Below are positions 4,202 through 43,166 of a stretch of DNA of 47,359 nucleotides, piece after piece; position 1 is the stretch's first letter; each line of letters opens with the position of its first letter. This DNA is from Candidatus Woesearchaeota archaeon (GTDB lineage Archaea > Nanobdellota > Nanobdellia > SCGC-AAA011-G17 > DATDVL01). Location: assembly GCA_964365915.1 (NCBI GenBank), contig CAYIRJ010000004.1:1-47359 (forward strand), given 5' to 3'. Both the position numbers and the translations under genes were made by a program. The notes beneath the pieces were generated by a model. It was not told the origin of the DNA and searched no databases. It saw only the letters and a program-made list of their open reading frames with translations.

Positions 4202-6811
4202 ATGGCAGAGGACTACGTTTACAAATATGTGGACCAGATCCAGTTTGGACTGTTAAGCCCGGAAGAGATCCAGAAAATGAGTGCAGTAAAAGTTGTGACG
4301 CCTGAGCTGTATGACAATGAAGGATACCCTGTGGATGGAGGATTGATGGATATTCGCCTGGGGGTGATTGATCCTGGCTTACGATGCAAGACTTGTGGAG
4401 GGAAACTCAAGGAATGCATGGGGCACTTTGGCTATATTGACTTGGCACGGCCTGTTATTCATATCAAGTACATCAAGATGCTTCTGGATTGCTTGCGGTC
4501 TTCCTGCAGAGAGTGTGGGAAATTATTGCTGCAAGATAAGGACATGGAGAAATGGGGTCATCGCTTAACAAAATCACAGGCAGAAGGGGGAGAAGATGCA
4601 CGCAGGGATGTGGTGAGTTCAGTCATTACTAGTGTGAAGAATATCAGAAAATGTCCGCACTGTAAGGCGAAACAATATAGTATCAAGATCGAGAAACCCA
4701 GCACCTTTATGGAAAATGACAGAAGATTGACTCCTATTGAGATCAGGACAAGGCTAGAACGCATTCCTGATGATGCACTAGTGTATCTGGGATTACAATC
4801 GAAATCTGCACGCCCTGAATGGGCAGTGATGAGTATTTTGAATATTCCTCCCGTAACCATGCGGCCGAGTATTACTTTGGAAACAGGAGAACGGAGCGAG
4901 GATGATTTGACGCACAAGTTGGGAGATGTGGTCAGGATCAACCAGCGGTTATTTGAGAACATCAATGCAGGCGCTCCTGAAATCATTGTGGAGGACTTGT
5001 GGGACTTACTGCAGTACCATGTGACAACCTACTTGGATAATACCATCAGCCAGGTTCCTCCTGCACGGCACAGAAGCGGACAGGCATTGAAAACCTTAAC
5101 CGAGCGCATCAAGAGCAAGGAAGGAAGATTCCGCCATAATCTCGCAGGGAAGCGCGTTAACTATGCTGCACGCACAGTCATCAGTCCTGATCCGAAAATC
5201 AAGTTCAATGAAGTGGGCATCCCCCAGCGGGTAGCAATGGAACTGACGGTTCCTGAGCGAGTGAATGTCTGGAATATTGCATTGCTGAAGGAACTGATTG
5301 AGCGCGGTCCTGAAGTGTATCCGGGAGCGAACTATGTCATTAGACATGACGGCAAGAAAAAACAGATTACTGAAGAAACACGAGAAGTGATTCTTGCGGA
5401 ATTGGGACCGGGCATGATTGTGGAACGGCATCTTGTGGATGGGGACATTGCTTTATTCAACCGGCAACCGAGCTTGCATAGGATGAGCATCATGTGCCAT
5501 CGCATTCGCGTACTTCCGGGAAAAAGTTTTCGGTTGAATCCGAGCGTGTGCAATGCGTTCAATGCAGACTTTGATGGAGATGAGATGAACTTGCACGTTC
5601 CGCAGACTGAGGAAGCGCGTGCAGAAGCAGAAATCCTGATGGAAGTGCAGACCCAGCTCATTACTCCGAAGCATGGCTATAATGTCATGGGATGTGTGGA
5701 AGATGCAGTTACCGGACTCTACTTGCTGACGAAGGGGGAGGGCATGCCATTTTCCAAAGAGGAGGCTGTACAACTGTTTGTTAGCATTGGTATTGAAGAT
5801 CCTAAGATCACCCGACAAAAAGTTAATGGAAAGGAATTGTTCAGCATGCTGCTGCCGAAGGATTTTACCTATGAAGGACTTGCCAAAGGTGTGCCGAAAG
5901 ATGCGGAATTAAAAAGAGGAGATGATGGCTTGGTTATTATTGAAAACGGGCAACTGGTGAGCGGCGTCATTGATGCCAATGCTGTCGGAGAAGAACGCGG
6001 AAAAATGATCATGGAATTTTATCGGCGCTATGGCCCGGTAACCACCATCGAATTTTTAGGGAACATCTTCAGGCTGGGGATTAAGGTCTTGCTGAAGCGC
6101 GGGTTTACGATCAGCATTGACGACATCGACATTACTGAGGAAGTGCAAGAGAAAATTACTACATCACTTAGCCAAGGGGATAAGGACGTGGATGAACTGG
6201 TCAAAGAATACCATGCAGGCAAGATGGAAACGCTGCCAGGAAGAACCCTTGCAGAAACTTTAGAAATCAAAACCTTAGGAGTCCTGAACAAGATCCGCGA
6301 CAAAATCGGACAATATGTTGCACAAAACACGCGTCCAAAAAATTCTGCGGTGATCATGGCAAAATCAGGTGCCAAAGGAAAAATTTTGAACCTTGCCCAG
6401 ATGTCAGGGTGCGTCGGGCAGCAGGCACTGATGGGACACCGCATTACTACGGGATACAAAGGAAGAACTTTGAGCATGTTCAAAAAGCACGATTTGTCTG
6501 CAAATGCGCACGGATTTGTGAAGAGCAGCTTCAAAAGAGGATTAAATCCTTACGAGTTTTTCTTCCATGCCATGACCGGAAGAGATGGATTAATGGATAC
6601 TGCACTGCGCACTCCTAAGTCTGGTTATCTTTATCGAAGGCTGGCAAATGCATTGCAAGACATGAAAGTGGAGTATGACAACAGTATCCGAGATGCCAAC
6701 AAGAACATCGTGCAGTTTGCCTATGGTGAAGACGGACTTGAAGTCAGCAAAACTTGGGGAGGCAATCTCAACATCAAGCGCATTGTGAAGAGTGTCAAAC
6801 ATGAAAGATAA
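4202..6811 (+). CDS. rpoA1: RNA polymerase subunit A' (Rpo1N)
   Basis: 869 aa. Has N-terminal zinc motifs (CKTCGG..C..C) and the catalytic NADFDGDEMNLHVPQ motif. Confidence 0.95.
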   Translation: MAEDYVYKYVDQIQFGLLSPEEIQKMSAVKVVTPELYDNEGYPVDGGLMDIRLGVIDPGLRCKTCGGKLKECMGHFGYIDLARPVIHIKYIKMLLDCLRSSCRECGKLLLQDKDMEKWGHRLTKSQAEGGEDARRDVVSSVITSVKNIRKCPHCKAKQYSIKIEKPSTFMENDRRLTPIEIRTRLERIPDDALVYLGLQSKSARPEWAVMSILNIPPVTMRPSITLETGERSEDDLTHKLGDVVRINQRLFENINAGAPEIIVEDLWDLLQYHVTTYLDNTISQVPPARHRSGQALKTLTERIKSKEGRFRHNLAGKRVNYAARTVISPDPKIKFNEVGIPQRVAMELTVPERVNVWNIALLKELIERGPEVYPGANYVIRHDGKKKQITEETREVILAELGPGMIVERHLVDGDIALFNRQPSLHRMSIMCHRIRVLPGKSFRLNPSVCNAFNADFDGDEMNLHVPQTEEARAEAEILMEVQTQLITPKHGYNVMGCVEDAVTGLYLLTKGEGMPFSKEEAVQLFVSIGIEDPKITRQKVNGKELFSMLLPKDFTYEGLAKGVPKDAELKRGDDGLVIIENGQLVSGVIDANAVGEERGKMIMEFYRRYGPVTTIEFLGNIFRLGIKVLLKRGFTISIDDIDITEEVQEKITTSLSQGDKDVDELVKEYHAGKMETLPGRTLAETLEIKTLGVLNKIRDKIGQYVAQNTRPKNSAVIMAKSGAKGKILNLAQMSGCVGQQALMGHRITTGYKGRTLSMFKKHDLSANAHGFVKSSFKRGLNPYEFFFHAMTGRDGLMDTALRTPKSGYLYRRLANALQDMKVEYDNSIRDANKNIVQFAYGEDGLEVSKTWGGNLNIKRIVKSVKHER

Positions 6812-9398
6812 CGCAATTGATTTTGCAGCAGCACTGCCGAAAAAAATTTTGGATGAGTTTGAAGAGCTGGCAGCAGCAGAAAAATTAACGCAGAAACAGA
6901 AACAGGAAGCACTGGCACTGCTGCATGAAGAATATCAGAACAGCAAGATCAGCCCTGGGGAGGCGATTGGGATCATCACTGCAGAGAGCTTTGGCGAACC
7001 AGGGACTCAAATGTCACTATTTTTTAGTAACAAAATAATTGTGAAAATAAACAACAATAAAATATTTACGGTAAAAATTGGACCGTTTGTTGATATGTTA
7101 ATGAAGATGAAAGGATCATTTAAACTCAACGATCATTCAGAAATTCTTCCTTTACATGATTTTGAAATTTATGTTCCTAGTTTAAATCAAGAAGAAAAGA
7201 TAGAATGGAAACGCGTGATTGAATGTAGTAGGCATATCACAAACAAAAAACTTATGAGAATTACTACTGCTTCTGGTAGGTCTGTTACCTGTACTGATAA
7301 TCACTCTTTTGTAAATCGTATTCATAATAAGATTACTCCAATAAAAGGGACAGAATTGCAAATTGGAAATAGAATTCCCGTTATTAATTCATTTGTGAAT
7401 CCCTTACCGATGCAAGAATTATCTATCAAAAACCACATCATCGATAATGAAGGAATAGTTGAAGAAAAAGGCGTACTTTCCAAACCAGGAACTAATGCTA
7501 AATCTATGAATGGAAGTTTACCATTAAATGAATCTACTGGATGGTTTATTGGTGCATATCTTGCAGAAGGCAATGGAGGAAAATACCACGCTTCTCTTTC
7601 CAATGTAAATGATAATTACATCAATAACGGTAAACGCTTCGCTGATTCTCTAGGTATTGAACCTGTCGACAGATTTTATATTGGAGAATATGGTCCAGGT
7701 AGATCATTAACATTACATTCTGGATTTTTAGGTAGTTTCATTATAACTCATTGTGGGCAAGGTTCAGATTTCAAAAAAGTCCCTTACTTTGCTTATTCTG
7801 CATCTGATGCGTTCATCTCTGGATTGCTGAGAGGCTACTTTGATGGCGATGGGAATTTCCATGTGGATAGAAAGATGATTCGCTGCTCTTCCAATTCCAA
7901 AGAATTAATAGATGGCATTGCCTTGCTGTTGTCACGATTCAGAATATTTTCCTTTAAAGTACAAGATAAGAAAGGGCAGCACTGGCTCTTGATTCCCTAT
8001 AAGTATGCTCCTTTATTCTTGCAGCACATTGGAAGCGATATTGATTACAAACGTGCTAGCCTCGAAACTTTAGCAGAAAAAGCCAAACGCTTCTGGAATT
8101 CGAGAAGCCAAGATTATACAGACATGATTTCAGGATTTGGAGAACTTTTCAGGAATACTGCAAAGAAGGTTGGCTATCCTACGCGTTACGTCAATAACTT
8201 TACGAACCGCCAAAAAATTGGAAGAACTGCCCTCTTCCGATACATGAAACTCTTTGAACATCTTGCCAAGGAAAAAAACATAGACATTAAGGATGAGCTT
8301 GCTATCATGCAGCGCATGTCTTCCTCTGATGTGGTGTGGGATGAGATTGTAAAGATTGAATATGTCGATAATGACAAGCCTGTTTATGACCTCAGCGTGC
8401 CAGGATTAGAAACATTCACGACAGCAGATGGCATTATCACCCATAACACTTTGAATGTTTTTCACTTTGCAGGCGTCGCGGAAGTGGCAGTGACCCAAGG
8501 ATTGCCCAGGCTTATTGAACTGTTTGATGCCAGAAAAGAAATCAAGACTCCTTTAATGGAAATTTATCTGGACAAGGATATTGCCAAGGATCCTGAAAAA
8601 GTGAGGAAGATGGCTGCACAAATCAGGGAAACCCGTGTCGAGGAAGTGGTCAGTGATTTTTCCATTGATGTTGCACGGCTGCAGATTGCATTGGTGCTGG
8701 ACAAACAGAAGATGAGAAACCTTTCCATTACCAACAATCAGCTAATGAAAGCACTGGAACAGGACATTAAAACTGCCTCGATCAAGGATGAAGGAGATAG
8801 CATTGTACTGAAAACTAAGGTAAAGGAAAATGAGCTGATGGAAACGTACAAGCTGAAGGAAAAAACAAAAACAGTGTTTGTCCGGGGAGTTGCGGGCATC
8901 ACCCAAGTATTGCCAGTGAAGGCAGGCAACGAGTTCATTATCCTTGCAGCAGGGTCGAATCTGAAGGAAGTGTTCGCACTGAAAGGAGTGGATGCTGCAC
9001 GTACGACTACGAACGACATCTTTGAAGTGCAAAAAGTGCTGGGTATTGAGGCAGCACGGCAGACCATCATTAACGAGGCGAAAAAAGTGATTGAGGACCA
9101 AGGACTGGAAGTGGATGTCCGTCATATTTTGTTTATTGCAGATGCCATGACTGCAACAGGAGTAGTAAAAGGGATTACTCGATCAGGCATTACTGGAGAG
9201 AAGGAAAGCGTGCTTGCCCGGGCCAGCTTTGAAACCCCTATTGAACACTTGGTGGATGCCTCGCTGGTGGGAGAAGTAGACTATTTGAATTCCGTCATTG
9301 AAAATGTGATGCTGAACCAGATTGTTCCTTTGGGAACAGGATTGCCTGACCTCAGGGCAGTGACCCAAACTGAGGACAAGGAAAAGAAGGAAGCATGA
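6792..9398 (+). CDS. rpoA2: RNA polymerase subunit A'' (Rpo1C), interrupted in frame by a 478-aa intein
   Basis: 868 aa in total. The extein flanks GEPGTQM | TLNVFHFAGVAEVAVTQGLPR match the conserved A'' motif. Without the intein the protein is ~390 aa, typical for A''. Confidence 0.95.
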   Translation: MSNMKDNAIDFAAALPKKILDEFEELAAAEKLTQKQKQEALALLHEEYQNSKISPGEAIGIITAESFGEPGTQMSLFFSNKIIVKINNNKIFTVKIGPFVDMLMKMKGSFKLNDHSEILPLHDFEIYVPSLNQEEKIEWKRVIECSRHITNKKLMRITTASGRSVTCTDNHSFVNRIHNKITPIKGTELQIGNRIPVINSFVNPLPMQELSIKNHIIDNEGIVEEKGVLSKPGTNAKSMNGSLPLNESTGWFIGAYLAEGNGGKYHASLSNVNDNYINNGKRFADSLGIEPVDRFYIGEYGPGRSLTLHSGFLGSFIITHCGQGSDFKKVPYFAYSASDAFISGLLRGYFDGDGNFHVDRKMIRCSSNSKELIDGIALLLSRFRIFSFKVQDKKGQHWLLIPYKYAPLFLQHIGSDIDYKRASLETLAEKAKRFWNSRSQDYTDMISGFGELFRNTAKKVGYPTRYVNNFTNRQKIGRTALFRYMKLFEHLAKEKNIDIKDELAIMQRMSSSDVVWDEIVKIEYVDNDKPVYDLSVPGLETFTTADGIITHNTLNVFHFAGVAEVAVTQGLPRLIELFDARKEIKTPLMEIYLDKDIAKDPEKVRKMAAQIRETRVEEVVSDFSIDVARLQIALVLDKQKMRNLSITNNQLMKALEQDIKTASIKDEGDSIVLKTKVKENELMETYKLKEKTKTVFVRGVAGITQVLPVKAGNEFIILAAGSNLKEVFALKGVDAARTTTNDIFEVQKVLGIEAARQTIINEAKKVIEDQGLEVDVRHILFIADAMTATGVVKGITRSGITGEKESVLARASFETPIEHLVDASLVGEVDYLNSVIENVMLNQIVPLGTGLPDLRAVTQTEDKEKKEA
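7014..8447 (+). mobile_element. Class 1 intein with LAGLIDADG homing endonuclease domain, inserted in rpoA''
   Basis: Begins with Ser (SLFFSNKIIV) right after extein GTQM. Has block B TCTDNHSF and LAGLIDADG motifs GWFIGAYLAEGNG and ISGLLRGYFDGDGNF. C-terminal block VYDLSVPGLETFTTADGIITHN is followed by +1 Thr (TLNVFHFAG). Length 1434 nt, in frame. Confidence 0.85.
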
Positions 9399-23060: not shown

Positions 23061-23698
23061 TAAAACTCACCTCGTTCACGAAGAATATCGTCAACAGGTA
23101 CGCCCTTTTTAATATCTTCTTTTATCTTTTGTTCTAAATCGGCAACTGCAACACATTGTGTGAGAACTTCACTTTCAATTGTTTGAGGAATAACAGCGAC
23201 CGCATCATAATCACCAAATAATAAATCTCCTGGCTTGATAGTACATTCTCCAATAATGACTGATATATCTAATTTATCAACAATACCTCTCTTTTTAATA
23301 TCTCGAGCATAGTTGGTTCGCGCAAAGACAGGATAACACATATTTATGGTTTCAATAGTATCTCTTGTACAACCATCAATAATTGTTCCATCAACACCCC
23401 GATATTGAGCTAATGTTGCCATGAGTTCCCCAAAAAATGCCATTTCTTTGAAACCATTTCCAACAACAAGAACATCTCCCTTATTTAATTGCTCAAGAAA
23501 ATGGGGTCCTCTATAAACCTCTCGGTGGTCTTCACCATTAGTAATCGGTTTAAGAGACATTGGTCTTGCTCGCCCAAATAAACGTGCTTTAACAAAGTTA
23601 GGTTTAATGTCTGAAGGAAGTAATTGGTGTGTATACCCCATTTCGTCTAAAACATCAGAGATTATTGCTGAAGAGAGACGTGTTTTATAATCAATCAT
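23060..23698 (-). CDS. RraA-like family protein (class II pyruvate aldolase / RNase E regulator fold)
   Basis: GDVLVVGNGF..AFFGELMATLAQYRGVDGTIIDGCTRD matches the RraA/HMG-CHA aldolase signature. Confidence 0.8.
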   Translation of the reverse strand: MIDYKTRLSSAIISDVLDEMGYTHQLLPSDIKPNFVKARLFGRARPMSLKPITNGEDHREVYRGPHFLEQLNKGDVLVVGNGFKEMAFFGELMATLAQYRGVDGTIIDGCTRDTIETINMCYPVFARTNYARDIKKRGIVDKLDISVIIGECTIKPGDLLFGDYDAVAVIPQTIESEVLTQCVAVADLEQKIKEDIKKGVPVDDILRERGEF

Positions 23699-25112
23699 GG
23701 TTATTCACCCTTTTAAGCCCACGCATGACTGTTTCTGCAAATGCAAAATCTTCTTCAGTATTGATGTCAATACTTTCTATTAATTGGATTGGAAGAATAT
23801 GCGGGGTTTTTCCAATGCGGGATTTACCACTGAGAAGCGCAGCTCTTCTGATAGCATATAAACTCATAGTTTCAATAATGGTTGCGGGAAGGTCAACACT
23901 GTTAGGAATATGGATTGGATCATAGTTTCTTGGTGTACCATCTGCATTCCAAAGATATATCTTTTCTCTTCGTGCAGCAAAGACACTATCATGTTCTTTT
24001 CTTACTGTCAGACGAAATACTGCTTCATCAATAGTACTTCGTAAGAGAAATGGCGCTGTAGGAAGTACCTGCACATATATATCAGCATCTGGAACTCGTC
24101 CTGCCTCGTACAAAAGCAGTTGATTACCGTCAGTGCTATTAGAGGCAAGGCTCTCTGGTCGACGTAATTCTTTATGTCCTCGTCCACTTGCAATATCAAA
24201 TACGATTTGTGATTCACTATCTAAGTAAACGTCTTGAATAGTGTGGCAAGTGAGTAAGGTATCTAAGACATGAAGGAGTAATGGTTTATCACCGAGCTGT
24301 CTAATATTTTTACTTGTAACTCGAGTGCTTGTTCCTTTTGCAGGCACAAATGCTACAACATGATATTTTTGCGCAATTTTTCCTAATAAATCTTCTTGTA
24401 CAAATACATCTAATGAACTTGTTGCATCGTTGACAATACGTCGTCCTGCTTGTTCAAATTGTCGTTGCGCTTCTTGCATATAACTTATAATGAGTGCACG
24501 ATATTCAGGATGCCCAGGTAAACCTTTTTGGATAATGTGACTTTGTGTTCTTGGAAATATTAAATTTGGGAAGTCAGTATTTCGATGAATTTCATAAGCG
24601 TGACCATCTTTTCCCCAATCGTGGTTTGTGCTCAGATCCATGCCTATAATATTTACTCTATTAAATCCAAGGAAGTATGCAAGTTGTAATGCGTCATAGG
24701 CTACTGTTTTTCCTCGCCAAAACCCCTCTTGTAAAGGATTTTGTGCAAAACGAACAACTCCCTGCGGATGACATTGCGGTACAAAGTAGGTTCGCTCATC
24801 TGCTAATTCTTGAGGAAATGTTTTGCAGGCTCCAGCAGCAATAATCTTTATAGTTGGTGTGCCTCTCAATACTCGTTCATACACATCTCTGAACTGGGGA
24901 ATAACATCTTTGTCAGCAACAATGTTAAATGTAGGAGTTACACCTGATTGCCTTAAGATAAGTGGGCTGAGGTTAAGACCAATGGTTACTTCATTTCTCA
25001 GCGCTGAGAGGTCCCTATAGGCTAAACTTGGGCCCGTTCCTGCAATAAACCCATGCTTTCCTCTGAACTTATTTTCCAAGCTAAGAAGGGCTTCAAGACT
25101 ATTTGTAACCAT
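23691..25112 (-). CDS. Fusion protein: N-terminal DUF115 (Maf / MptE-like) domain plus C-terminal CMP-sugar cytidylyltransferase (NeuA/KdsB-like)
   Basis: N-terminal GKHGFIAGTGPSLAYRDL..VTIGLN (DUF115-like). C-terminal HVVAFVPAKGTSTRVTSKNIRQLGDKPLLLHVLDTLL (acylneuraminate/Kdo cytidylyltransferase N-terminal motif). 473 aa; a TATA-like element lies upstream at 25124-25138. Confidence 0.75.
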   Translation of the reverse strand: MVTNSLEALLSLENKFRGKHGFIAGTGPSLAYRDLSALRNEVTIGLNLSPLILRQSGVTPTFNIVADKDVIPQFRDVYERVLRGTPTIKIIAAGACKTFPQELADERTYFVPQCHPQGVVRFAQNPLQEGFWRGKTVAYDALQLAYFLGFNRVNIIGMDLSTNHDWGKDGHAYEIHRNTDFPNLIFPRTQSHIIQKGLPGHPEYRALIISYMQEAQRQFEQAGRRIVNDATSSLDVFVQEDLLGKIAQKYHVVAFVPAKGTSTRVTSKNIRQLGDKPLLLHVLDTLLTCHTIQDVYLDSESQIVFDIASGRGHKELRRPESLASNSTDGNQLLLYEAGRVPDADIYVQVLPTAPFLLRSTIDEAVFRLTVRKEHDSVFAARREKIYLWNADGTPRNYDPIHIPNSVDLPATIIETMSLYAIRRAALLSGKSRIGKTPHILPIQLIESIDINTEEDFAFAETVMRGLKRVNNHD

Positions 25113-25687: not shown

Positions 25688-26119
25688 ATGGATGTTCAGC
25701 ATGCGTGCCATTGTTCATATAGGATTCGCTATCACATGGTGTTTGTGCTCAAGTATAGGAAAAATCTCATCAGCGATGAGATATTTGAATTTCTGAAAGA
25801 AATTTGCAAAGGGATTGAACAGCGTTACTTCATCAAGTTCGATGCTCTTGGCAGCGATGGAGATCATCTGCATTTGGTGATTGAAGCTGCTCCTCGCTAT
25901 GCTCCATCAAATGTTATGCAGATCTGCAAGAGCATTCTTGCAAAGCAAGTCTTCAAGCAATTTCCTGAAGTGCGTGAAGAGCTGTGGAATGGAGAGTTCT
26001 GGAGTGATGGAGGACACATTGATACTGTTGGAGATGGCAGAGGACTGGATGCAGTCAGGCAATATGTAGAAAAGCAAGGTAAGAAATCAGATCAGCTCAC
26101 ACTCTACTCGTTCGTCTGA
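25688..26119 (+). CDS. tnpA: IS200-like transposase TnpA (HUH present; catalytic Tyr apparently absent)
   Basis: YHMVFVLKYRK and HLHLVIE (HUH) match the IS200 family. The C-terminal motif reads FWSDGGHIDTVG where WSxSYFxG is expected. Confidence 0.8.
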   Translation: MDVQHACHCSYRIRYHMVFVLKYRKNLISDEIFEFLKEICKGIEQRYFIKFDALGSDGDHLHLVIEAAPRYAPSNVMQICKSILAKQVFKQFPEVREELWNGEFWSDGGHIDTVGDGRGLDAVRQYVEKQGKKSDQLTLYSFV

Positions 26120-27988: not shown

Positions 27989-28059
27989 ATTTCCTTCAAG
28001 CAGTGAGCGCTTTTATTTGTATCGGAATCCTTTTATATAAATTCCTACAAGAAATATAT

Positions 28060-28974
28060 ATGCAGCGCAAGGTTGCCAAGATTGGGCCAAGCACGTTGAT
28101 GGTCAGCCTGCCCACGCAATGGGTAAAAAAGCACGGCATCAACAAAGGAGATGTGGTGAATGTGCTGGAGGATGGCGATAAATTAACCATCAATCTCGGA
28201 ACGCATACCCCTACAGAAAAGAGCGCAACACTTTCTGTCGAAGGACTTGATGTCATGCTGAGCAGGGCTATTGCTGGATATTATAAAAAAGGCTACTCTG
28301 AAATCAAGATTGTTTGCGATTCCCACAAAAAGCTTGCTGATGTCTATCAAGCATTAAATGTGCACTGGACAGGCATGGAAATTGTGGAACAAGGAGCTTC
28401 TCACATTTTGCTCCGTCAGGTTAGCGAGGTTACTAAGGAAAGTTTTCCTGCCATGCTTAACCGCGCCTTCCTTTTTTTGATTGCGACGAGTGATGCGTCC
28501 TGCCATGCGCTTACGTCTGGGAATAAAGAATCCTTACGGATGGTGGTTGCACGCGATCCTACACAAAATAAGTACTGTGATTTCTGCAGGAGAGTGCTGA
28601 ACAAAGAATCGATCACCGGAGCACCCATGATTTACTACATTGTGGAACAGCTTGAGCGGATGGGGGATTTGTATCGCGATCTTTGCAAGCATTTTCTGGA
28701 ACATCCCGCGAAGCTGAAAAAACATACTGCACTCTTCCAAGAGGCGCATGCATTGCTGCAACAGTTCTATACTCTTTATTACCGGTTTACTCTGGAACGC
28801 TATGAAACTCTGGGAACTTCCTTTAAAACATTGCAGAAGAGGATTGAAGATGCTCTTTCCCCTGCGGATAAACAAGATGTTTTCTTTCTGATGTATCTGC
28901 ACCAGATTGCAGAAGCCATTTTTGATATCAATGGTGCTGCACTGGTTCTTAACCTAGAAACACGGAAGGATTGA
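28060..28974 (+). CDS. PhoU-like phosphate-uptake regulator with N-terminal AbrB/SpoVT-type swapped-hairpin domain
   Basis: MQRKVAKIGPSTLMVSLPTQWVKKHGINKGDVV (AbrB-like) followed by helical PhoU-like repeats. TATA TTTTATATAA at 28031-28040, 24 nt upstream of the ATG. Confidence 0.6.
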   Translation: MQRKVAKIGPSTLMVSLPTQWVKKHGINKGDVVNVLEDGDKLTINLGTHTPTEKSATLSVEGLDVMLSRAIAGYYKKGYSEIKIVCDSHKKLADVYQALNVHWTGMEIVEQGASHILLRQVSEVTKESFPAMLNRAFLFLIATSDASCHALTSGNKESLRMVVARDPTQNKYCDFCRRVLNKESITGAPMIYYIVEQLERMGDLYRDLCKHFLEHPAKLKKHTALFQEAHALLQQFYTLYYRFTLERYETLGTSFKTLQKRIEDALSPADKQDVFFLMYLHQIAEAIFDINGAALVLNLETRKD

Positions 28975-30595
28975 TACTTTCTTCAAATGATTTATTTAAT
29001 TCTGGATATGTTTCAGCAATTGCACGCTTGGTTCCTACATAGATACGCTCTATTCTTTCTTTATCTTCAGGCTTGCGGCGCTCTGACAGTGCAGCAAGCT
29101 GACACAACGAGTTTTGAATGGTAATATTCTTCCACGTATCTATCCAAAGCTGATAATCGCGAGCAGGAAAATATTTTTTCCATTCGTTCCATGCATGCTG
29201 CAAGAGTTCATTACGCTGACCTGGACGGGCAGCCATGAATGCAGCAATGTCGTGCAAAGAATCGGAACGTCCACCGGTCTCCCAGTCAATGACATATCCC
29301 CCTTCCAAAACGTTTGATTCTGCAGCATCACGATGCGCAAGCACTTCAATCCCTAACAGATTACGAAGCTTCGCAAGATTTTCCAATTTTCTTTCGTACT
29401 GGTCCAAAAATTCCTGCTGCCTTGAATGCTGCAACCTTCTCCTGCACCTTCTCTTAAATTCATCTTGATAATCATGCACCGGCTCATCAGGAAAATGCTC
29501 TTGGTACGGGCCTGTTCCTGCTGCCATCAACTTGATGAGATGGGTAATGCCTTGCTTGAAATCATTTAAGTTATTTTCTGCACATTGGTTCAAAGTTTTT
29601 TTGTTTACTCGACGCGTTACAAGAATATACTCCTCCCCATATGGAAAACTGCTCAACGGATCTTCGCATGGCACCTGTTCAATATTCAGTACACCATAGC
29701 GTTGTATATATGCATCTCGCTGCAAACTGGCTATTGCTTCCTCTCGCTTCAATGCTTTTGGATCAATACTACGCTTGAAGAAATAACTATCTTTAGTGAA
29801 AAGATTCTCTTTGCATTCTAACAATACATGTGTCTTGCGGGATTGTGTAACTTTAGCTAATCGTGCAGGATTCTCTAAGATCTTTTCCAATGAAGAACGA
29901 AAATGCTGCTGTGCACGTTTGTATTCTCCCAGAGAACGACAAAAAATTCCTGCCAATAATTCAAGATTTACCGTGTTCTCAGGATATTTCTTAGGAAGCG
30001 ACTCGACTATTCGATGTGCAAGGTAATACCAACCCGATCTTTGATACATATCAAACCGCATAATATCCTTTCTTAATGTCCCACGGAAAGGAAATCCCAA
30101 CCATCCCAACAACGGCAGCATATATTCTGCAAATGTTTTAATATTATCATATTTTTTTTGGTTTTGGATCTTTTGTGCAGTATACAAAAAATATTGATCA
30201 TATCTCTGATTGAGGAACGCTTCCTTTGCACATAGGTCCAAATAAATAGTTGGATTATTTGTTTGTTCTTTTATTGTATCGATTTTTTCAAGGATTTTCT
30301 TTTTTTTCCCAAAAACAGTTTTCGCAAGAGGGAGTATTCCCGTTTTTGGTTCTGCACTTGTTAAGAAGCAAGATGTCATGAACGTCCCACCAAAAAAGCC
30401 CAAAAAAAACAAACGAAGATGATCTTCAATAGGTAGATCTATGTCTGATAACCAATATCGTATTCCTCCATAGATAACTGCGCCCCCTCCTATGGAAAGA
30501 CCATTCATTTCTTTTACCCATTTTTGATGCTTTCGTAATCTCTCCTCAAGCGTTTGTTCCTGATACATCAACTTTTTCTCGTTTTTGAAATTCAA
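28949..30595 (-). CDS. Membrane-anchored protein-kinase-like phosphotransferase (APH family fold)
   Basis: N-terminal hydrophobic segments. C-terminal VLAHRDAAESNVL and YVIDWETGGRSDSLHDIAAF (HxDxxxxN / DxE APH-like motifs). Confidence 0.6.
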   Translation of the reverse strand: MNFKNEKKLMYQEQTLEERLRKHQKWVKEMNGLSIGGGAVIYGGIRYWLSDIDLPIEDHLRLFFLGFFGGTFMTSCFLTSAEPKTGILPLAKTVFGKKKKILEKIDTIKEQTNNPTIYLDLCAKEAFLNQRYDQYFLYTAQKIQNQKKYDNIKTFAEYMLPLLGWLGFPFRGTLRKDIMRFDMYQRSGWYYLAHRIVESLPKKYPENTVNLELLAGIFCRSLGEYKRAQQHFRSSLEKILENPARLAKVTQSRKTHVLLECKENLFTKDSYFFKRSIDPKALKREEAIASLQRDAYIQRYGVLNIEQVPCEDPLSSFPYGEEYILVTRRVNKKTLNQCAENNLNDFKQGITHLIKLMAAGTGPYQEHFPDEPVHDYQDEFKRRCRRRLQHSRQQEFLDQYERKLENLAKLRNLLGIEVLAHRDAAESNVLEGGYVIDWETGGRSDSLHDIAAFMAARPGQRNELLQHAWNEWKKYFPARDYQLWIDTWKNITIQNSLCQLAALSERRKPEDKERIERIYVGTKRAIAETYPELNKSFEESINPSVFLG

Positions 30596-30644
30596 AAATT
30601 TTTCGCCAAAAAGCTTATATAAACCCTTTTTAACTGACTTGATT

Positions 30645-32486
30645 ATGGCGAAGAAAACACCTGACGCACCTTCTTCTCAACCTGATTTGGCTTCCAAGCT
30701 TCCAGAACTGCCTGATGCAGTGAAACAGCGCTTTGAAGAAGTCAAGAAAAAACTAGAAACTTTTAAAGATAAGACCTTAGAAAAATTTGACAAATATATT
30801 CTGGGCATTTCATTATTGCCGCCAGAGAAACAGCCTTTTGAAGGTCCCCCTCCTGCGGCTGCAACACCTCCTCCCGGACCTGAACAGAAAAGTGATGAAC
30901 TGAACATTCTTGTCTTGATAAATGATAGTGACAGTGAGAAAATGAGCAAGTTTGAGCTGCGGGAAAAAATGTTTACTGTTCTTGACAAGATTGCTGCGGA
31001 CATTGACAAAAGCTTCAAGCCTGAAGTGATGCTGCTGACAGAACTGCGCGAAAGTTTGTATGACGCGAAATATGAAATTTTGCGACTTATCGGCATGAGC
31101 GCTCCTATTTACGATCCCAAGGATCTGCTTGCTGCACTCAGGATCAGCGAAGTGCACAAAAGCATGGTCATCAAGAAATTTGAGAAATATGTGGTGAGCT
31201 ATGTTGCTGTGGGAAGCTTGTTTAGAGGAGATGCAAAGAGCAATGACATTGACGTTGCGGTGATCATTGATGATACTGATGTGAAAAAGATGAGCAGGGC
31301 AGAGCTGAGAGACAAGCTTGGAGCAATCATCAGAAGCATGGGATACGAGGCTTCTTCCATTACTGGAGTGAAAAAGAGCTTTCACATTCAAGTATACATC
31401 TTAACTGACTATTGGGAAAGCATCAAGGAAGCGAATCCCGTAATCTTTACGTTCTTGAGAGATGGCGTGCCGCTCTATGACCGAGGGACGTTCATGCCCT
31501 GGAAACTGCTGTTGGAACAGGGAAGAATTCGACCCAGCCCGGAAGCCATTGACTTGTTCATGGACATGGGAAAACGGCTGATTGAGAGGGCAAAAGGAAG
31601 GATGATTGGTATTGTTGCAGAAGATATTTACTATGCAGCCTTGAATCCGAGTCAGGCTGCGTTGATGCTGTATGGCATTCCTCCTCCTACGCCGAAGGAA
31701 ACGGTGAAACTGCTGGAGGATATTTTTGTGAAGAAAGAAAAATTACTGGAAATGAAGTATGTCAACACGCTTGAAAAGATCAGGAAGTGCTACAAGGACA
31801 TTGAGCATGGCACGATCAAGGACATTACGGGAAAAGAAATTGACCAGATGCTGCAGGAGACTGAGGATTATTTGAAGAGGATTGATCATTTGTTCAAGCA
31901 GATTGAGAAGCAGGCTGACAAGAAAGCAGTTGAGGAATTTTACAGCACTTTTGCTAAGGCGGTAAATGATGTTCTTGCTACTGAAAACATTATTGCCAAC
32001 AAAGACTTGGAAAAGGACTTCAAGCTGCTTGTCAAGAAAAACATCATTCCCAAGACCTTTGAAAAAAATCTTGAAGCTGTTGTTGGGCTGAAAAAGAAAA
32101 AATTAACGCGCTTTGAACAGAACAAAGTCATTCGTGAGAATACTTTTTTGATCCGCATCTTGTTTGAACATATCCAACGGAAAAAGGCGCTGGAGCTGGA
32201 ACGGGCAAAGATACGGGTGAAATACGGGGAGAAGTTTGCAGATGTTTACTTATTGGATAAGGTGGCTTATCTGGTGGAGGATGCGGATGGAACGGAAAAA
32301 CGCATCAACAAGGCTCTCTTGACTAAGGAAGGGGGATTAGAAAACATCCAGGAAAGTAACTTAAATGAACTGGAGACGGCATTGACTGCAGTGCCGATTC
32401 CCCAGAAGGTGTTCATCAAGGAAAAGATCTTTGAAGACTTAAGAAAATTGTATGGCGAAGATATTGAGATTGCTGTCGGACGATAA
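30645..32486 (+). CDS. Pol-beta-superfamily nucleotidyltransferase with an internally duplicated (degenerate) NTase module and C-terminal helical HEPN-like region
   Basis: Active-type motif VAVGSLFRGDAKSNDIDVAVIIDD preceded by a degenerate copy ILVLINDSDSEKMSKFEL. Shares LLEQGRIRP and GIPPPTPKE with its paralog at 42354-43166. RILFEH (Rx4H) lies in the C-terminal region. Start at MAKKTP (30645) with TATA at 30614-30623. Confidence 0.65.
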   Translation: MAKKTPDAPSSQPDLASKLPELPDAVKQRFEEVKKKLETFKDKTLEKFDKYILGISLLPPEKQPFEGPPPAAATPPPGPEQKSDELNILVLINDSDSEKMSKFELREKMFTVLDKIAADIDKSFKPEVMLLTELRESLYDAKYEILRLIGMSAPIYDPKDLLAALRISEVHKSMVIKKFEKYVVSYVAVGSLFRGDAKSNDIDVAVIIDDTDVKKMSRAELRDKLGAIIRSMGYEASSITGVKKSFHIQVYILTDYWESIKEANPVIFTFLRDGVPLYDRGTFMPWKLLLEQGRIRPSPEAIDLFMDMGKRLIERAKGRMIGIVAEDIYYAALNPSQAALMLYGIPPPTPKETVKLLEDIFVKKEKLLEMKYVNTLEKIRKCYKDIEHGTIKDITGKEIDQMLQETEDYLKRIDHLFKQIEKQADKKAVEEFYSTFAKAVNDVLATENIIANKDLEKDFKLLVKKNIIPKTFEKNLEAVVGLKKKKLTRFEQNKVIRENTFLIRILFEHIQRKKALELERAKIRVKYGEKFADVYLLDKVAYLVEDADGTEKRINKALLTKEGGLENIQESNLNELETALTAVPIPQKVFIKEKIFEDLRKLYGEDIEIAVGR

Positions 32487-33705: not shown

Positions 33706-33737
33706 AGTTTTTTAAACCTTTTTTGACAGTTACGATT

Positions 33738-33995
33738 ATGGCACAAGCATTAATTACCCAGTTCCGTAGAGGAAAAACCACAAAACAAGAACGGCAAATG
33801 CTCATTTGTATTACCGGCGTAGATAAAAAGAAGGCTGTAGGTTACTTAGGTAAGCAAGTCGTCTGGAAAAGCACTGCAGGAAAAGAAATCAAGGGTATGA
33901 TCAGCAGAATCCATGGCAATAAGGGAGTGATGAGTGTTATTTTCGAGAAAGGCATGCCTGGCCAGGCCATTGGCACAGCAGTAGAGGTGCAATAA
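33738..33995 (+). CDS. rpl35ae: 50S ribosomal protein L35Ae
   Basis: FRRGKTT..QMLICITGVD..AVGYLGKQVVWKSTAGKEIKGMISRIHGNKGVMSVIFEKGMPGQAIGTAV matches the L35Ae pattern. Start at MAQALI (33738), with TATA-like TTTTTTAAA 26 nt upstream. Confidence 0.8.
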   Translation: MAQALITQFRRGKTTKQERQMLICITGVDKKKAVGYLGKQVVWKSTAGKEIKGMISRIHGNKGVMSVIFEKGMPGQAIGTAVEVQ

Positions 33996-33996
33996 T

Positions 33997-34551
33997 ATGG
34001 CAGGATTACGACCCGCGCATTGCTATACTGAAATTAAGCGTGCGTACACCAGAAAAAGCAAGTTCAAAAGCAAGGGATATGTCAAGGCAGCACCGAATTC
34101 CAAGATTGTGAAATACTTCTTTGGCGATGTTACAAAAAATTTCAGCCATCAGCTGGATTTTGTTGCAATAGTTCCTGTGCAAATTCGGCATAATGCATTG
34201 GAAAGCGTGCGCCAGATTGTGAACAGGAGATTAAGCATTGATATTGGGAAGAATTACCGCCTAATTATTCGAGGGCATCCCCATCATGTGCTGCGCGAGC
34301 ATAAAATGTTAACGGGAGCGGGTGCAGACCGCATGAGCCCGGGAATGGCCCATGCCTTTGGAAGGCCTATTGGACTAGCAGTGCAAGCAAAGAGAGGCAA
34401 AGTGCTGATGAGTATATGGGTGGACAAATCTGATATTGAGAAAGCGAAATACGCGTACAGCAAGGCCTTTCCCCGATTGCCAGGACGATGGAATGTGGTT
34501 GTAACAGACATTGTAAAAATTCCTGAAATTACTTCCTTTCCAAGCAGATAA
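33997..34551 (+). CDS. rpl10e: 50S ribosomal protein L10e (uL16)
   Basis: MAGLRPAHCYTEIKRAYTRKSKF..; 184 aa. Confidence 0.9.
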   Translation: MAGLRPAHCYTEIKRAYTRKSKFKSKGYVKAAPNSKIVKYFFGDVTKNFSHQLDFVAIVPVQIRHNALESVRQIVNRRLSIDIGKNYRLIIRGHPHHVLREHKMLTGAGADRMSPGMAHAFGRPIGLAVQAKRGKVLMSIWVDKSDIEKAKYAYSKAFPRLPGRWNVVVTDIVKIPEITSFPSR

Positions 34552-34630: not shown

Positions 34631-36292
34631 ATGCGCGGGGGTATGTTGATTGCCTGGTTGAATGCTGCAACGCCTGAAACCTTTATTGGAGAGAAAGCAA
34701 GAACCCTTGCTGCATTAGCAACTCATGGGATCAATGTGCCGAAAGGATTTGTCATTACCCAAGAGGCATTTACCCACTTTCTTGCGGCAAACCAGATTGA
34801 CTTGCAGTTTCTTGAAAACTTGAACTTGGAGGATCAGGAACAAGTGGCGCATGCGGCAGCAGAACTCCAGCATCTTTTCCAGCAGGCCTATTTTCCAGAA
34901 ACACTACAGCAGGAAATTCTTTCAGCGTATGACCAGATGCTGGTGAGTGCTGAAGTGTATCATCATGTCAGCGCAGAAGCCTTGAACATTCTGAAGACAG
35001 GAAGAGACCTTCCTAAGGTCCTGATTCGGTCCAGCTGGAAGGAAGGAAAAGCGCTTTTTCATATTAAAGGGAAGGAAGCACTGCTGCAAGCCATCAAGGA
35101 AAGTTGGATGCTCCGCTTTCAGCCTGCACTATTGCAGCACCACATGCATGACATGGAAGTTATTGTACAAAAAATGCTTACTGTAGAACGCTCGGGTGTT
35201 GTTGTCCCTGATCAGCAGACTCACATTGAAGTAGTGTTAGGACTCTATGATGCGGTTACTCAGCAGCTTGTTCAGCCTGATGTGTATGCTCTTGATGAGC
35301 AGGGCACGTTTATTACCAAACAAGTGGTGAAGCAGGAATTCCTCTTCGTACGCGATTCCCAGGGAAGCTTGATCAAAAAGCATTTATTCTACCATGGGGA
35401 AAGCCAGAAACTCAGCGATTATGATGCACGCCAAATAGCAAAGCTCTACCAGAAAATTACGAGCATACTTGGATACATGTCTATTCTTGAATTTGCATTT
35501 GATGGTAATCAATTGTATGTACTGCAGGCTACCCAGCAGAAGCAGGAACCTGTCGTGGAACACGTAATGCAGCAAGCACAACCAGATATGCAAGCACAGG
35601 AACCGGAAACGCTTTCTTCAGAAGATCTGCATACTGTGACTGAACTGAAGGTGTTTCTTGAACAGAAGGACAGCTCTATTCCCTGTGATGGAGTGTTTAC
35701 TACTGCCTCTCTCCAAGATCTTCAAGAGATAGCCAAGGAATACCAACAAAATACGGTGTGGTATGCATTGCGCGATGCGCAGGATCTCCTGGACATTGCT
35801 AAGTTCCATGATGCAGGAGCGAACAATGTGGGGATTGCTATTTGTGGACTCACGGAAATTGAGCAGCTGCGGATGGTGAAGAACTCCCTGAAGAAGGCGG
35901 GGCTGGAACCTTTGGAGGAAATTGAAGTAGGATTAGTTATCGATTCCCCTCTTCTCCTCTATTTGCTTGATGACATTGACAGAGAAGGAATTGATTTCTT
36001 AGTAGTGGATTTTGCAACGCTGGCAGAGCGGAGTGCGGGAAAAGTCACGGACGGAAAAAACAAGGGATACTTGAAGTTACTGCATCATTTAGTGAAGGAA
36101 TGCAAATTGAGAAATATTGAAATTGGGGTTGCGGGGACCTTTGATGACGAACTGATTGACTTCTTTGTGAAGGCAGGATTTGACAGCTTGATATTGCCGA
36201 AGGCACAGCTGGAAAATGTGAAGAAAACAGTTGCGCGTGCGGAAAAAAGGCTGTTATTAAACGCTGCACGAAGAGACTTGAAAGAGATATGA
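34631..36292 (+). CDS. PEP-utilising-enzyme-like protein (pyruvate phosphate dikinase / PEP synthase N-terminal nucleotide-binding domain homolog)
   Basis: FIGEKARTLAALATHGINVPKGFVITQEAF resembles the PPDK_N motif. 553 aa; the true start may be M5. Confidence 0.55.
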   Translation: MRGGMLIAWLNAATPETFIGEKARTLAALATHGINVPKGFVITQEAFTHFLAANQIDLQFLENLNLEDQEQVAHAAAELQHLFQQAYFPETLQQEILSAYDQMLVSAEVYHHVSAEALNILKTGRDLPKVLIRSSWKEGKALFHIKGKEALLQAIKESWMLRFQPALLQHHMHDMEVIVQKMLTVERSGVVVPDQQTHIEVVLGLYDAVTQQLVQPDVYALDEQGTFITKQVVKQEFLFVRDSQGSLIKKHLFYHGESQKLSDYDARQIAKLYQKITSILGYMSILEFAFDGNQLYVLQATQQKQEPVVEHVMQQAQPDMQAQEPETLSSEDLHTVTELKVFLEQKDSSIPCDGVFTTASLQDLQEIAKEYQQNTVWYALRDAQDLLDIAKFHDAGANNVGIAICGLTEIEQLRMVKNSLKKAGLEPLEEIEVGLVIDSPLLLYLLDDIDREGIDFLVVDFATLAERSAGKVTDGKNKGYLKLLHHLVKECKLRNIEIGVAGTFDDELIDFFVKAGFDSLILPKAQLENVKKTVARAEKRLLLNAARRDLKEI

Positions 36293-42353: not shown

Positions 42354-43166
42354 TCACATTCCCTTTTTCTTCTCAATATATTCCTTCATTGCATGTACAA
42401 AATCCTCTGCCTTTTCCTTTAATTCATCGTAGTGCTTTCCAGAAATTTCCTTGATGTCGCGATGTACAATGTGCTTGAATGTTAGATACAGTTCTTGCAT
42501 GATCTTGGCATGCTTATGCTTAATATGGGTTCCTGCTAGTTTTCTTTCCACCATTTCAGCAACATGGCTCGGAGTGGGGGGAATCTCGCCTGCAGCCATT
42601 AAAGCAGCATGTGCAGCGTCAATAGCAGCCCAATACAAATCAATGGTTGCTCCGAGCAGGTGATCCCGCGACCTGGCAAGAGAAGCAGGAGCCAAGGTAA
42701 AATAGGTCCAGACTGATTCGTCTGTTGGTCTGATCCTTCCTTGTTCCAGCAATGCCTGCAGAGGATCAAAGAAGCCTGTGTCAATGACTGCAATGCCATA
42801 GCGCATGACATTAATGGCAACAGGATCGCCTGCACGCACATATTCCCACCAGGCAGTCAACTTCATGGACTGGACATGCAATCTCCTTGGATCGACATCA
42901 TTCATTGCCCTTGCCACGATAACCCGGTAAGCCTCGACCAATTCTTTATTGAACTGAAAACGGAGATCATCTACGATAATAAGAATGTCCAGATCGCGCT
43001 TCTTTCCTCCCGGATCCTTGACTGCAGAACCAAACAAGACCAAGGCGCGGATAAAATTGCCAAATTCCTTGTAAAGAATCTTAGCGAATTTCTGCGTGGT
43101 TTCAATATCCTCTGCAAGATAACGGGAGAAATTCCTCTGCTCACGCTGCGGAATAGAAAACTTCAC
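42354..43166 (-). CDS. Pol-beta-superfamily nucleotidyltransferase with helical C-terminal domain (paralog of 30645-32486)
   Basis: LFGSAVKDPGGKKRDLDILIIVDD (GS..D.D NTase motif). Shares DPLQALLEQGRIRPTDE and GEIPPTPSH with the larger paralog. TATA-like TATATAAAT at 43205-43213 on the promoter side. Confidence 0.7.
   Translation of the reverse strand: MKFSIPQREQRNFSRYLAEDIETTQKFAKILYKEFGNFIRALVLFGSAVKDPGGKKRDLDILIIVDDLRFQFNKELVEAYRVIVARAMNDVDPRRLHVQSMKLTAWWEYVRAGDPVAINVMRYGIAVIDTGFFDPLQALLEQGRIRPTDESVWTYFTLAPASLARSRDHLLGATIDLYWAAIDAAHAALMAAGEIPPTPSHVAEMVERKLAGTHIKHKHAKIMQELYLTFKHIVHRDIKEISGKHYDELKEKAEDFVHAMKEYIEKKKGM

Follow-up and report, generated by a model that had tools for sequence, protein, structure and literature searches.

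HEPN domains fused to MNT domains are usually domesticated toxin-antitoxin (TA) modules without RNase residues (Anantharaman et al., 2013; PMC3710099). A DPANN-specific cluster of this kind, cls.004259 (NEQ050), was described as 'MNT fused to HEPN' in a typically house-keeping context, and its unusual conservation suggests an important role (Makarova, Wolf and Koonin, 2019; PMC6393860). Here, we describe a Woesearchaeota locus in which a long nucleotidyltransferase (NTase)-HEPN protein is encoded divergently from a kinase. We interpret the NTase protein as a domesticated single-chain nucleotidyltransferase, which probably belongs to the dark-matter family of DPANN MNT-HEPN fusions with a house-keeping context flagged in 2019. 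Its family is large, lineage-wide and uncharacterised. The locus as a whole is likely to hold two separately evolving divergent neighbours in one Woesearchaeota sub-lineage, namely a lineage-wide NTase enzyme and a kinase acquired once.

The window, that is, the whole stretch of 47,359 nucleotides analysed, is a core RNAP/EF-2/EF-1alpha region. A sequence-only reading of this DNA had proposed a divergent gene pair, and the two long open reading frames were confirmed. The genes that enter the argument are arranged as follows.

28003-28974, forward strand: AbrB/MazE-type plus PhoU-like regulator gene (Pfam MazE_antitoxin and PhoU; synteny)
28949-30568, reverse strand: kinase gene (open reading frame, 539 aa counted from ATG)
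30569-30644, no strand: divergent intergenic spacer, 76 nt (sequence)
30645-32486, forward strand: long-form NTase-HEPN gene (613 aa plus stop, ATG start)
33723-33995, forward strand: L35Ae gene (Pfam on orthologs)
33997-34551, forward strand: L10e/uL16 gene (Pfam on orthologs)
42354-43166, reverse strand: short single-module paralog, 270 aa (BLASTP and Pfam)

The longest kinase open reading frame starts at a TTG and extends to 30595, and the database protein P0001 uses the same ATG as the NTase start at 30645. The region shared by the two genes had been put at about 50 nt with a TATA element; the length was an underestimate, and the TATA box holds. This box, TATATAAA at 30616-30623, stands 21 nt upstream of the NTase ATG and is preceded by an A-rich BRE-like stretch. 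A similar A-rich/TATA element lies 20-30 nt upstream of the orthologous NTase ATG in three other loci (L001, L002 and L003). The AbrB-PhoU regulator gene, which is present in most kinase-bearing loci (synteny), is convergent with the kinase gene and overlaps its 3' end.

Because the long form falls under the Pfam NTase and HEPN cut-offs (17 bits against a GA of 21-27 on NTP_transf_2/Polbeta), its domains were assigned from motifs, from comparison with the paralog and from a predicted structure (pTM 0.50; AF2 model pLDDT 76.6). The resulting architecture, all on the forward strand, is given below.

30714-31124: module 1, degenerate (pseudo) NTase, residues 24-160 (BLASTP and hhalign to module 2; column counts)
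31125-31529: module 2, intact NTase, residues 161-295, with the active-site stretch GSLFRGDAKSNDIDVAVIIDDTD at 31212-31280
31530-31820: HEPN domain 1 (HEPN1), UPF0332-like four-helix bundle, residues 296-392
31821-32207: second helical bundle, residues 393-521 (hhalign to HEPN1 68%, E 4.7e-5)
32208-32483: C-terminal beta-rich domain, residues 522-613

The internal duplication and the succession of a degenerate and an intact NTase motif, both noticed in the sequence-only reading, are borne out by alignment. Residues 24-160 match residues 161-295 (BLASTP E 7e-14; hhalign 98.7%, E 2.9e-16), and the alpha-beta-alpha-beta NTase fold is present. The Pol-beta pattern, hG[GS] and then, 9-13 residues further on the next strand, [DE]h[DE]h, is found in module 2 (G190-S191, D201-I-D203) and not in module 1. 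The four residues G190, S191, D201 and D203 are kept in 32 of 32 family members, whereas GS and DxD are gone from module 1 in every member (32 aligned, column counts), where LLPP plus a low-complexity insert replaces GS and I-N-[VIA] replaces DxD (I-N-I in the window). DDTD follows the same pattern, conserved without exception in module 2 and missing from module 1. The NTase strand after DxD carries an invariant H247-x-Q249, and D209/D210/D212 or D255 are sequence-based candidates for the third acid. Since module 1 is dead and module 2 live, one active site is expected.

The earlier NTase-HEPN call was right at the level of folds. HEPN1 is modelled with the up-and-down topology of a HEPN four-helix bundle, and the protein shows the KNTase-like two-domain geometry of an NTase with a C-terminal helical domain; a profile match to KNTase_C, the other possibility raised for this region, did not appear. 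HEPN1 contains an invariant K384-x-x-E387-H388-G389 (31794-31811), a potential non-canonical catalytic site. HEPN1 lacks the canonical Arg, with Y/F/H at the aligned position in the family alignment, and the Arg nearest to the invariant H388, R380 (23/32 members), is 7 residues off. RILFEH, singled out previously as an Rx4H HEPN signature, does occur in the window, at 32154-32171 inside the second bundle. Across the family this position varies as [RK]-x4-[HYF] (R 20/32, H 15/32), and so it is no conserved HEPN motif. Column counts over 32 members place a conserved Rx4-6H endoRNase motif in neither helical domain. The second bundle has a weak Pfam HepT-like match (E 0.02) and is possibly a diverged HEPN copy, and the C-terminal beta-rich domain has no clear counterpart among solved structures.

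The short paralog combines an active-type NTase, an LLEQGRIRP linker and a HEPN domain, and it aligns with long-form residues 174-410 (BLASTP E 5e-34, 28% identity). It scores 23.2 bits on Pfam NTP_transf_2 (GA 21), for which scores of up to 37 bits are seen in other short paralogs. The NTase GS/DxD motifs are invariant in the short paralogs too, and these invariants are common with the long form.

The NTase protein behaves like a housekeeping-type gene, near-ubiquitous in its lineage and conserved at the level of ribosomal proteins. The family comprises more than 4,115 database clusters, all of about 600 aa, and at least 593 GTDB species genomes encode it, every one of them from Woesearchaeota/Nanoarchaeota. 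Over 21 loci, median identity to the window is 56% for the NTase, 51% for L10e and 46% for L35Ae, and within the NTase protein the catalytic NTase domain is 80% identical and HEPN1 72%. L35Ae and L10e/uL16 are also its commonest downstream neighbours: in 31/77 loci L35Ae/L10e lie no more than 3 kb downstream, and in 16/77 they directly follow the NTase gene on the same strand. Linkage to ribosomal genes is limited to about 40% of loci, and the rest of the neighbourhood varies, with RNA polymerase subunit D (RpoD) and the rRNA methyltransferase RsmB as further neighbours.

We infer that the NTase gene descends from a domesticated MNT-HEPN (TA-like) module. With one dead and one live NTase copy, a HEPN four-helix bundle, a diverged second bundle and a beta domain, the single chain would mimic a dimer of kanamycin-NTase-like enzymes. 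Its one active site may modify a conserved cellular target by nucleotide transfer, most likely of AMP, with the HEPN part probably acting as a nucleotide- or substrate-binding domain rather than an RNase. The extreme conservation, together with the L35Ae/L10e, RNA polymerase subunit D and rRNA methyltransferase neighbours, suggests that this target, a protein or an RNA, is part of the gene-expression machinery.

In the kinase, a hydrophobic segment near the N-terminus is followed by a TPR-like middle region and, at the C-terminus, by the APH/choline-kinase-like domain. Its landmarks, on the reverse strand, are as follows.

30356-30418: only marked hydrophobic segment, LRLFFLGFFGGTFMTSCFLTS, residues 51-71 (Kyte-Doolittle)
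29312-29335: catalytic loop HRDAAESN, residues 412-419 (translation)
29279-29287: Mg-binding DWE, residues 428-430 (translation)

Its assignment to the APH/choline kinases, made at the outset from the HRDAAESN and DWE motifs, stands. The protein scores 27.0 bits on Pfam APH (PF01636) against a gathering cut-off of 23.2, seven of eight kinase homologs match the same family (best E 4.4e-14), and a profile search against the PDB returned the APH-family protein 3csv (E 2e-7), choline kinases and a designed TPR (E 1e-6). Both motifs are present, with equivalents in 7/8 divergent homologs: K265 and E276 (the beta3 Lys and alphaC Glu equivalents), D414, D428 and E430 are invariant across the eight (12-34% identity), H412 and N419 are retained in seven, and the HxDxxxxN and D-x-E patterns are found. 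Judged by these residues, the protein looks like an active phosphotransferase of the APH/choline-kinase fold. The N-terminal transmembrane helices once assigned to it come down to the single segment at residues 51-71, whose Kyte-Doolittle 19-residue mean of 1.5 is borderline; this is a possible membrane anchor, and such segments number 0-2 in homologs.

The kinase is a fast-evolving gene confined to one monophyletic Woesearchaeota sub-clade. With 73 representatives at E<=1e-3 in a set of 1.84 billion proteins, its family is small, and its identity is 22-35% where that of the NTase, compared at the same loci, is 56-85%. Such grossly mismatched evolutionary rates argue against the two genes forming a module, in which a small molecule would be phosphorylated and nucleotidylated in sequence, or the kinase would regulate the NTase, under co-regulation from a shared divergent promoter region. 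This arrangement seems unlikely, even though the catalytic residues of both proteins are intact, all examined kinase homologs are found within about 2.6 kb upstream of the NTase gene and in divergent orientation to it, and four loci have a divergent control region common to both. The kinase-NTase pairing is not a recurrent module. Among the 59 informative loci, defined as those with enough upstream flank, 8 contain kinase homologs and 51 have the NTase without the kinase. In the NTase tree, all eight map to a single clade of 12 leaves, and they share the same synteny block, which implies a single ancestral arrangement; in the other four leaves, the kinase is absent or the upstream flank too short. 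Two further kinase loci have the same synteny block, one of them at a contig end with a putative NTase as the neighbouring fragment. The kinase directly adjoins the NTase in the window, L001 and L002, and a 461-nt spacer with no called gene separates them in L003. A gene intervenes in half of the eight loci, and a 400-aa gene sits between the pair in L004, L007, L008, L011 and L084. In addition, a conserved TATA box of its own precedes the NTase gene. Under the preferred reading of separately evolving neighbours, the kinase would have been acquired once upstream of the NTase, with the AbrB-PhoU regulator gene and, in most relatives, the 400-aa gene, and would then have diverged rapidly.

A TA or defence role had also been suggested for the NTase protein. 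In its specific form, the long protein would be a fused type VII (HepT/MntA-like, FhepTA-like) module whose HEPN RNase is restrained by self-oligoAMPylation. MNT plus HEPN is indeed the architecture of HepT/MntA and the fused FhepTA (PMC13000451), both partners of HepT/MntA complexes are recovered as structural matches, the short paralog has weak PADLOC NTase matches (PDC-S09/PDC-M05A), and a TA origin was first suggested by Makarova et al. (PMC6393860). However, the long form has no PADLOC match, Rx4-6H is unconserved in either helical domain, and a lineage-wide syntenic distribution, ribosomal-protein-level conservation and a housekeeping context differ from the patchy, mobile TA pattern; a present-day TA role is quite improbable.

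We regard as very doubtful a joint resistance locus, in which a KNTase/Lnu/ANT-type antibiotic nucleotidyltransferase would be paired with an APH-type antibiotic kinase. The sequence-only reading had likened the pair to antibiotic- or small-molecule-modifying systems. An ANT-like resistance role of the NTase is hard to reconcile with its conservation; resistance enzymes are not normally universal, nor as conserved as ribosomal proteins, within an organism class. Searches of the NTase protein against Pfam, NCBIfam and PDB profiles gave no match to the KNTase (including KNTase_C) or ANT families, ANTs have no extra pseudo-NTase, second bundle or beta domain, and the kinase matches are confined to the generic catalytic core. 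[quoted passage not shown] Other RNA-directed NTase activity may belong within the main explanation.

Compared with known systems, the window kinase shares the HxDxxxxN loop, D-x-E, beta3 Lys and alphaC Glu of the APH/choline-ethanolamine kinases (PF01636), but it has about 245 extra N-terminal residues, comprising the hydrophobic segment and TPR-like region, and belongs to a very small, fast-diverging family of one Woesearchaeota clade. The NTase protein has no detected sequence similarity to GlnE or to the DrrA/SidM AMPylases; both GlnE modules are active and catalyse opposing reactions, whereas module 1 here is without any catalytic residue. With HepT/MntA and FhepTA, it shares the same two folds and, as in FhepTA, the MNT-then-HEPN order. 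It differs from them in being neither mobile nor patchy, in lacking a conserved Rx4-6H(xY) RNase/AMPylation motif, and in its domain order, NT'-NT-HEPN-HEPN', which is not a simple tandem of NT-HEPN units. The ANT(4')/ANT/Lnu enzymes are homodimers of an NTase plus a HEPN-like substrate-binding domain, whereas the protein described here is a single-chain pseudo-dimer with one live NTase and an extra beta domain, and its distribution is lineage-wide and vertical, unlike that of a patchy resistance gene. Compared by published description, it resembles cls.004259 (NEQ050) in its DPANN restriction, its MNT plus HEPN on one polypeptide, its unusual conservation and its housekeeping neighbours. The published note is silent on the duplicated dead NTase, the second helical bundle and the C-terminal beta domain, and the counterpart of cls.004259 may be the short, 240-295-aa paralog instead of the long form of 600 aa.

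The window covers a core housekeeping stretch of a DPANN (Woesearchaeota/Nanoarchaeota-type) genome, in which the NTase gene is preceded by genes for RNA polymerase B/A subunits, EF-2 and EF-1alpha and followed by those for L35Ae, L10e and a PEP-synthase-like protein. Both of the long divergent ORFs proposed at 28949-32486 are present, and the NTase start codon is the one used by a public database protein. A TATA-containing promoter region of about 50 nt, shared by the two genes, had also been proposed; the TATA box holds, and the length of the spacer needs correction:

28949-30568, minus strand: kinase gene, ORF from ATG, 539 aa
30569-30644: intergenic spacer, 76 nt between the divergent kinase and NTase genes
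30616-30623: TATA box TATATAAA, 21 nt upstream of the NTase ATG, identified by sequence
30645-32486, plus strand: NTase gene, ORF from ATG, 613 aa

The orthologous NTase ATG in three related contigs is likewise preceded, 20-30 nt upstream, by a similar TATA-like box, which argues that the NTase gene has its own promoter. Its transcript leader is probably short or absent. Base composition at the locus is not unusual and thus gives no sign of recent horizontal transfer.

Several other genes of the window deserve mention. Within the RNA polymerase A'' ORF (6792-9398, plus strand, 868 aa) lies an intein, at approximately residues 123-552, that bears a LAGLIDADG homing endonuclease (Pfam Intein_splicing and LAGLIDADG_3). 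An IS200-like Y1 transposase gene (25688-26119, plus strand; Pfam Y1_Tnp, E 2e-30) sits amid otherwise housekeeping genes; in the related contig L001 the transposase is of the IS66 type instead. At 23691-25112 on the minus strand, a 473-aa protein fuses an MptE-like (6-hydroxymethylpterin diphosphokinase-like) domain to a cytidylyltransferase domain. The PEP-synthase-like protein (34631-36292, plus strand) is only 553 aa long, with no match to the PEP-utilizers mobile (phospho-histidine) domain; its ortholog in locus L066 has 767 aa and includes that domain. The window protein may be degenerate or repurposed.

The 613-aa NTase-HEPN protein, referred to here as the long form, divides into five parts according to a 32-sequence alignment and an AlphaFold model (pLDDT 76.6):

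Part (i), residues 24-160: NTase-like module in which an LLPP (invariant) and a low-complexity insert (variable) stand in for the lost GS and DxD
Part (ii), residues 161-295: intact NTase with invariant G190, S191, D201, D203 and D209-D212
Part (iii), residues 296-392: HEPN four-helix bundle (HEPN1)
Part (iv), residues 393-521: second helical bundle, whose resemblance to HEPN1 is weak (hhalign 68%, E 4.7e-5)
Part (v), residues 522-613: beta-rich domain with no clear structural match

The claim of a degenerate and then an intact NTase arising by internal duplication is thus borne out, the similarity between the first two modules being significant (BLASTP E 7e-14; hhalign 98.7%, E 2.9e-16). Median identity is 80% in the live NTase, 72% in HEPN1 and 41-49% in the other parts. 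The two-domain geometry resembles that of KNTase, DrrA and GlnE, and a profile of the whole family, compared with PDB sequences, matches AF0298 and designed coiled coils alone.

The sequence-only reading had assigned the APH, NTase and HEPN folds correctly, but its choice of RILFEH as an HEPN-like Rx4H signature does not survive alignment. Among the 32 sequences, the first position is R in 20 and K in 12, and the last is H in 15, Y in 14 and F in three. The invariant residues of HEPN1 in this alignment are K384, E387, H388 and G389, and the position aligned to the canonical Arg of AF0298 is Y, F or H. Because RILFEH varies and the canonical Arg is replaced, the long form lacks a canonical Rx4-6H RNase site. 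The result agrees with a generalisation in the literature, by which an HEPN domain joined to an MNT is usually inactive and marks a domesticated TA module (PMC3710099).

A second, single-module member of the family is encoded in the same window:

42354-43166, minus strand: short paralog ORF, 270 aa, with GS...DxD...DD motifs, an LLEQGRIRP linker and an HEPN domain

Its NTase motifs are those of the long form, as is the LLEQGRIRP linker, to which the sequence-only reading had drawn attention. This protein passes the Pfam NTP_transf_2 cut-off, aligns to residues 174-410 of the long form (E 5e-34) and has in common with it a distinctive set of invariant residues. Similar paralogs of 240-295 aa occur in six other loci (L005, L011, L019, L033, L055 and L066), and in L019 and L033 the paralog adjoins rpoD and is located a short way upstream of the long-form gene.

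The family of the long form is very large. More than 4,115 clusters match at E<=1e-3 among 8,000 candidates scored. The best 120 matches are about 600 aa long, save a few partial proteins, and every one whose source is named comes from Woesearchaeota/Nanoarchaeota. Scanning GTDB species genomes with a pattern places the long form in at least 593 species. In the 21 loci where L10e and L35Ae are present as well, the NTase has a median identity of 56% to its window counterpart, against 51% for L10e and 46% for L35Ae. Some contigs, including L029, L036, L044, L048, L054 and L059, are titled "uncultured Methanosarcinales archaeon" yet carry a Woesearchaeota-type NTase gene; the titles are probably a taxonomic mislabel of MAGs.

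Of 77 loci, 31 have L35Ae or L10e no more than 3 kb downstream of the NTase gene, and in 16 one of the two follows it directly on the same strand. RNA polymerase subunit D, an RsmB/F rRNA methyltransferase, a CBS-domain protein and MoxR/VWA genes also recur as neighbours. An alternative conserved downstream context, found in L021, L029, L041, L043, L068, L075, L077 and L079, consists of a CBS-domain protein followed by two to four tandem paralogs of a 165-210-aa protein without a Pfam match.

The kinase and NTase had been read as a functional pair. ORFs of 80 loci from GTDB genomes and two close relatives were searched with an iterated kinase HMM, which detected kinase homologs in eight loci only, out of 59 whose upstream flank reached 3.5 kb or more. 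All eight fall within one 12-leaf clade of the neighbour-joining tree of NTase proteins. Three of the remaining four leaves have too little upstream flank, and in the fourth, L073, which has ample flank and a 400-aa gene, no kinase was detected. The block runs in a constant order: an AbrB-PhoU regulator, the kinase on the opposite strand, the 400-aa gene (in about half of the loci), the NTase, L35Ae and L10e. Two further kinase look-ups agree, one showing the whole block and the other, at a contig end, a partial divergent neighbour only. Every kinase homolog recovered sits near an NTase gene, and the majority of NTase genes are without a kinase neighbour. Since the kinase loci belong to a single NTase clade and have the same block, the arrangement arose once and was then inherited. 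Identity to the window is also mismatched (56-85% for the NTase, 55-77% for L10e and 22-35% for the kinase). Co-localization is real within one clade, recurrent pairing is not seen, and the functional pairing is unsupported; the association is ordinary inherited synteny.

The protein of about 400 aa, which has no Pfam match, is encoded directly upstream of the NTase on the opposite strand in L004, L007, L008, L011, L016, L073 and L084. In those of these relatives that have a kinase, its gene lies between kinase and NTase; the window, L001, L002 and L003 lack it. In L084 this gene directly adjoins that of the kinase, both on one strand, and looks operon-like.

The kinase itself scores 27 bits against Pfam APH (cut-off 23.2), which seven of the eight homologs match. 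Its family profile matches structures of APH-family, choline-kinase and spectinomycin-phosphotransferase proteins, and the middle region matches a designed TPR protein. The catalytic motifs HRDAAESN and DWE occur where they had been placed. K265, E276, D414, D428 and E430, equivalents of the beta3 Lys, alphaC Glu, catalytic Asp and metal-binding D-x-E, are invariant among the eight homologs despite identities of 12-34%, and on this residue pattern the kinase is probably enzymatically active. The proposed N-terminal TM helices reduce to one segment (residues 51-71, borderline hydropathy 1.5), and homologs carry zero to two such segments. Word-index searches returned the kinase alone and then three proteins, an artefact of a fast-diverging family. 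Local HMM iteration on the fetched loci and an exhaustive profile search of 1.84 billion representatives recovered the family, which is tiny (73 matches at E<=1e-3, of which 27 reach E<=1e-10; some are TPR-only). The kinase is a putative accessory phosphotransferase limited to one lineage.

The long form would be an active nucleotidyltransferase with a single catalytic site, whose HEPN bundle(s) probably bind nucleotide or acceptor; the acceptor would be a conserved macromolecule of the cell and probably belongs to the gene-expression machinery. A possible but doubtful proposal is that an ex-TA module became an essential, DPANN-specific, single-chain pseudo-dimeric NTase that covalently nucleotidylates a translation or transcription component (e.g., a ribosomal protein, rRNA or tRNA), a lineage-defining housekeeping modification without counterpart in other archaea, with the short paralog as the homodimeric ancestor-like form. 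It is unlikely that the long form replaces the CCA-adding enzyme, since, according to a 2026 preprint, CCA1 or CCA2 is found in DPANN genomes (bioRxiv 10.64898/2026.05.29.728689). The window contains no tRNA genes. The earlier suggestion of a defence or antibiotic-resistance system is unsupported. On the defence side, PADLOC gives no match to the kinase, the AbrB-PhoU protein or the long form; the conservation and context of the long form are of housekeeping type.

Genomes of DPANN archaea are tiny, and few of their conserved genes are specific to the lineage. A protein of 600 aa that is conserved like ribosomal proteins across hundreds of Woesearchaeota/Nanoarchaeota species, and is unknown elsewhere, is thus a prime candidate for a lineage-defining function. 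The proposed housekeeping nucleotidyltransferase would be a clear case of TA architecture domesticated into a core gene. Its anatomy offers biochemical handles, namely one dead and one live NTase, HEPN domains without the RNase motif and an extra domain without a clear structural match; invariant D201/D203 and K384/E387/H388 are obvious mutation targets.

The long-form NTase family is a known-unknown of DPANN biology. A 2019 paper described a cluster to which it probably belongs, cls.004259 (NEQ050), as a DPANN-specific MNT fused to HEPN, typically in a housekeeping context, and suggested an important role from its unusual conservation; compared by description only, that note makes no mention of the pseudo-dimeric five-part architecture of the long form (Makarova et al., PMC6393860). 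The architecture of the short form is exactly like that of kanamycin NTase, and the long form resembles a dimer of the short form made as one chain, with one of its sites inactivated.
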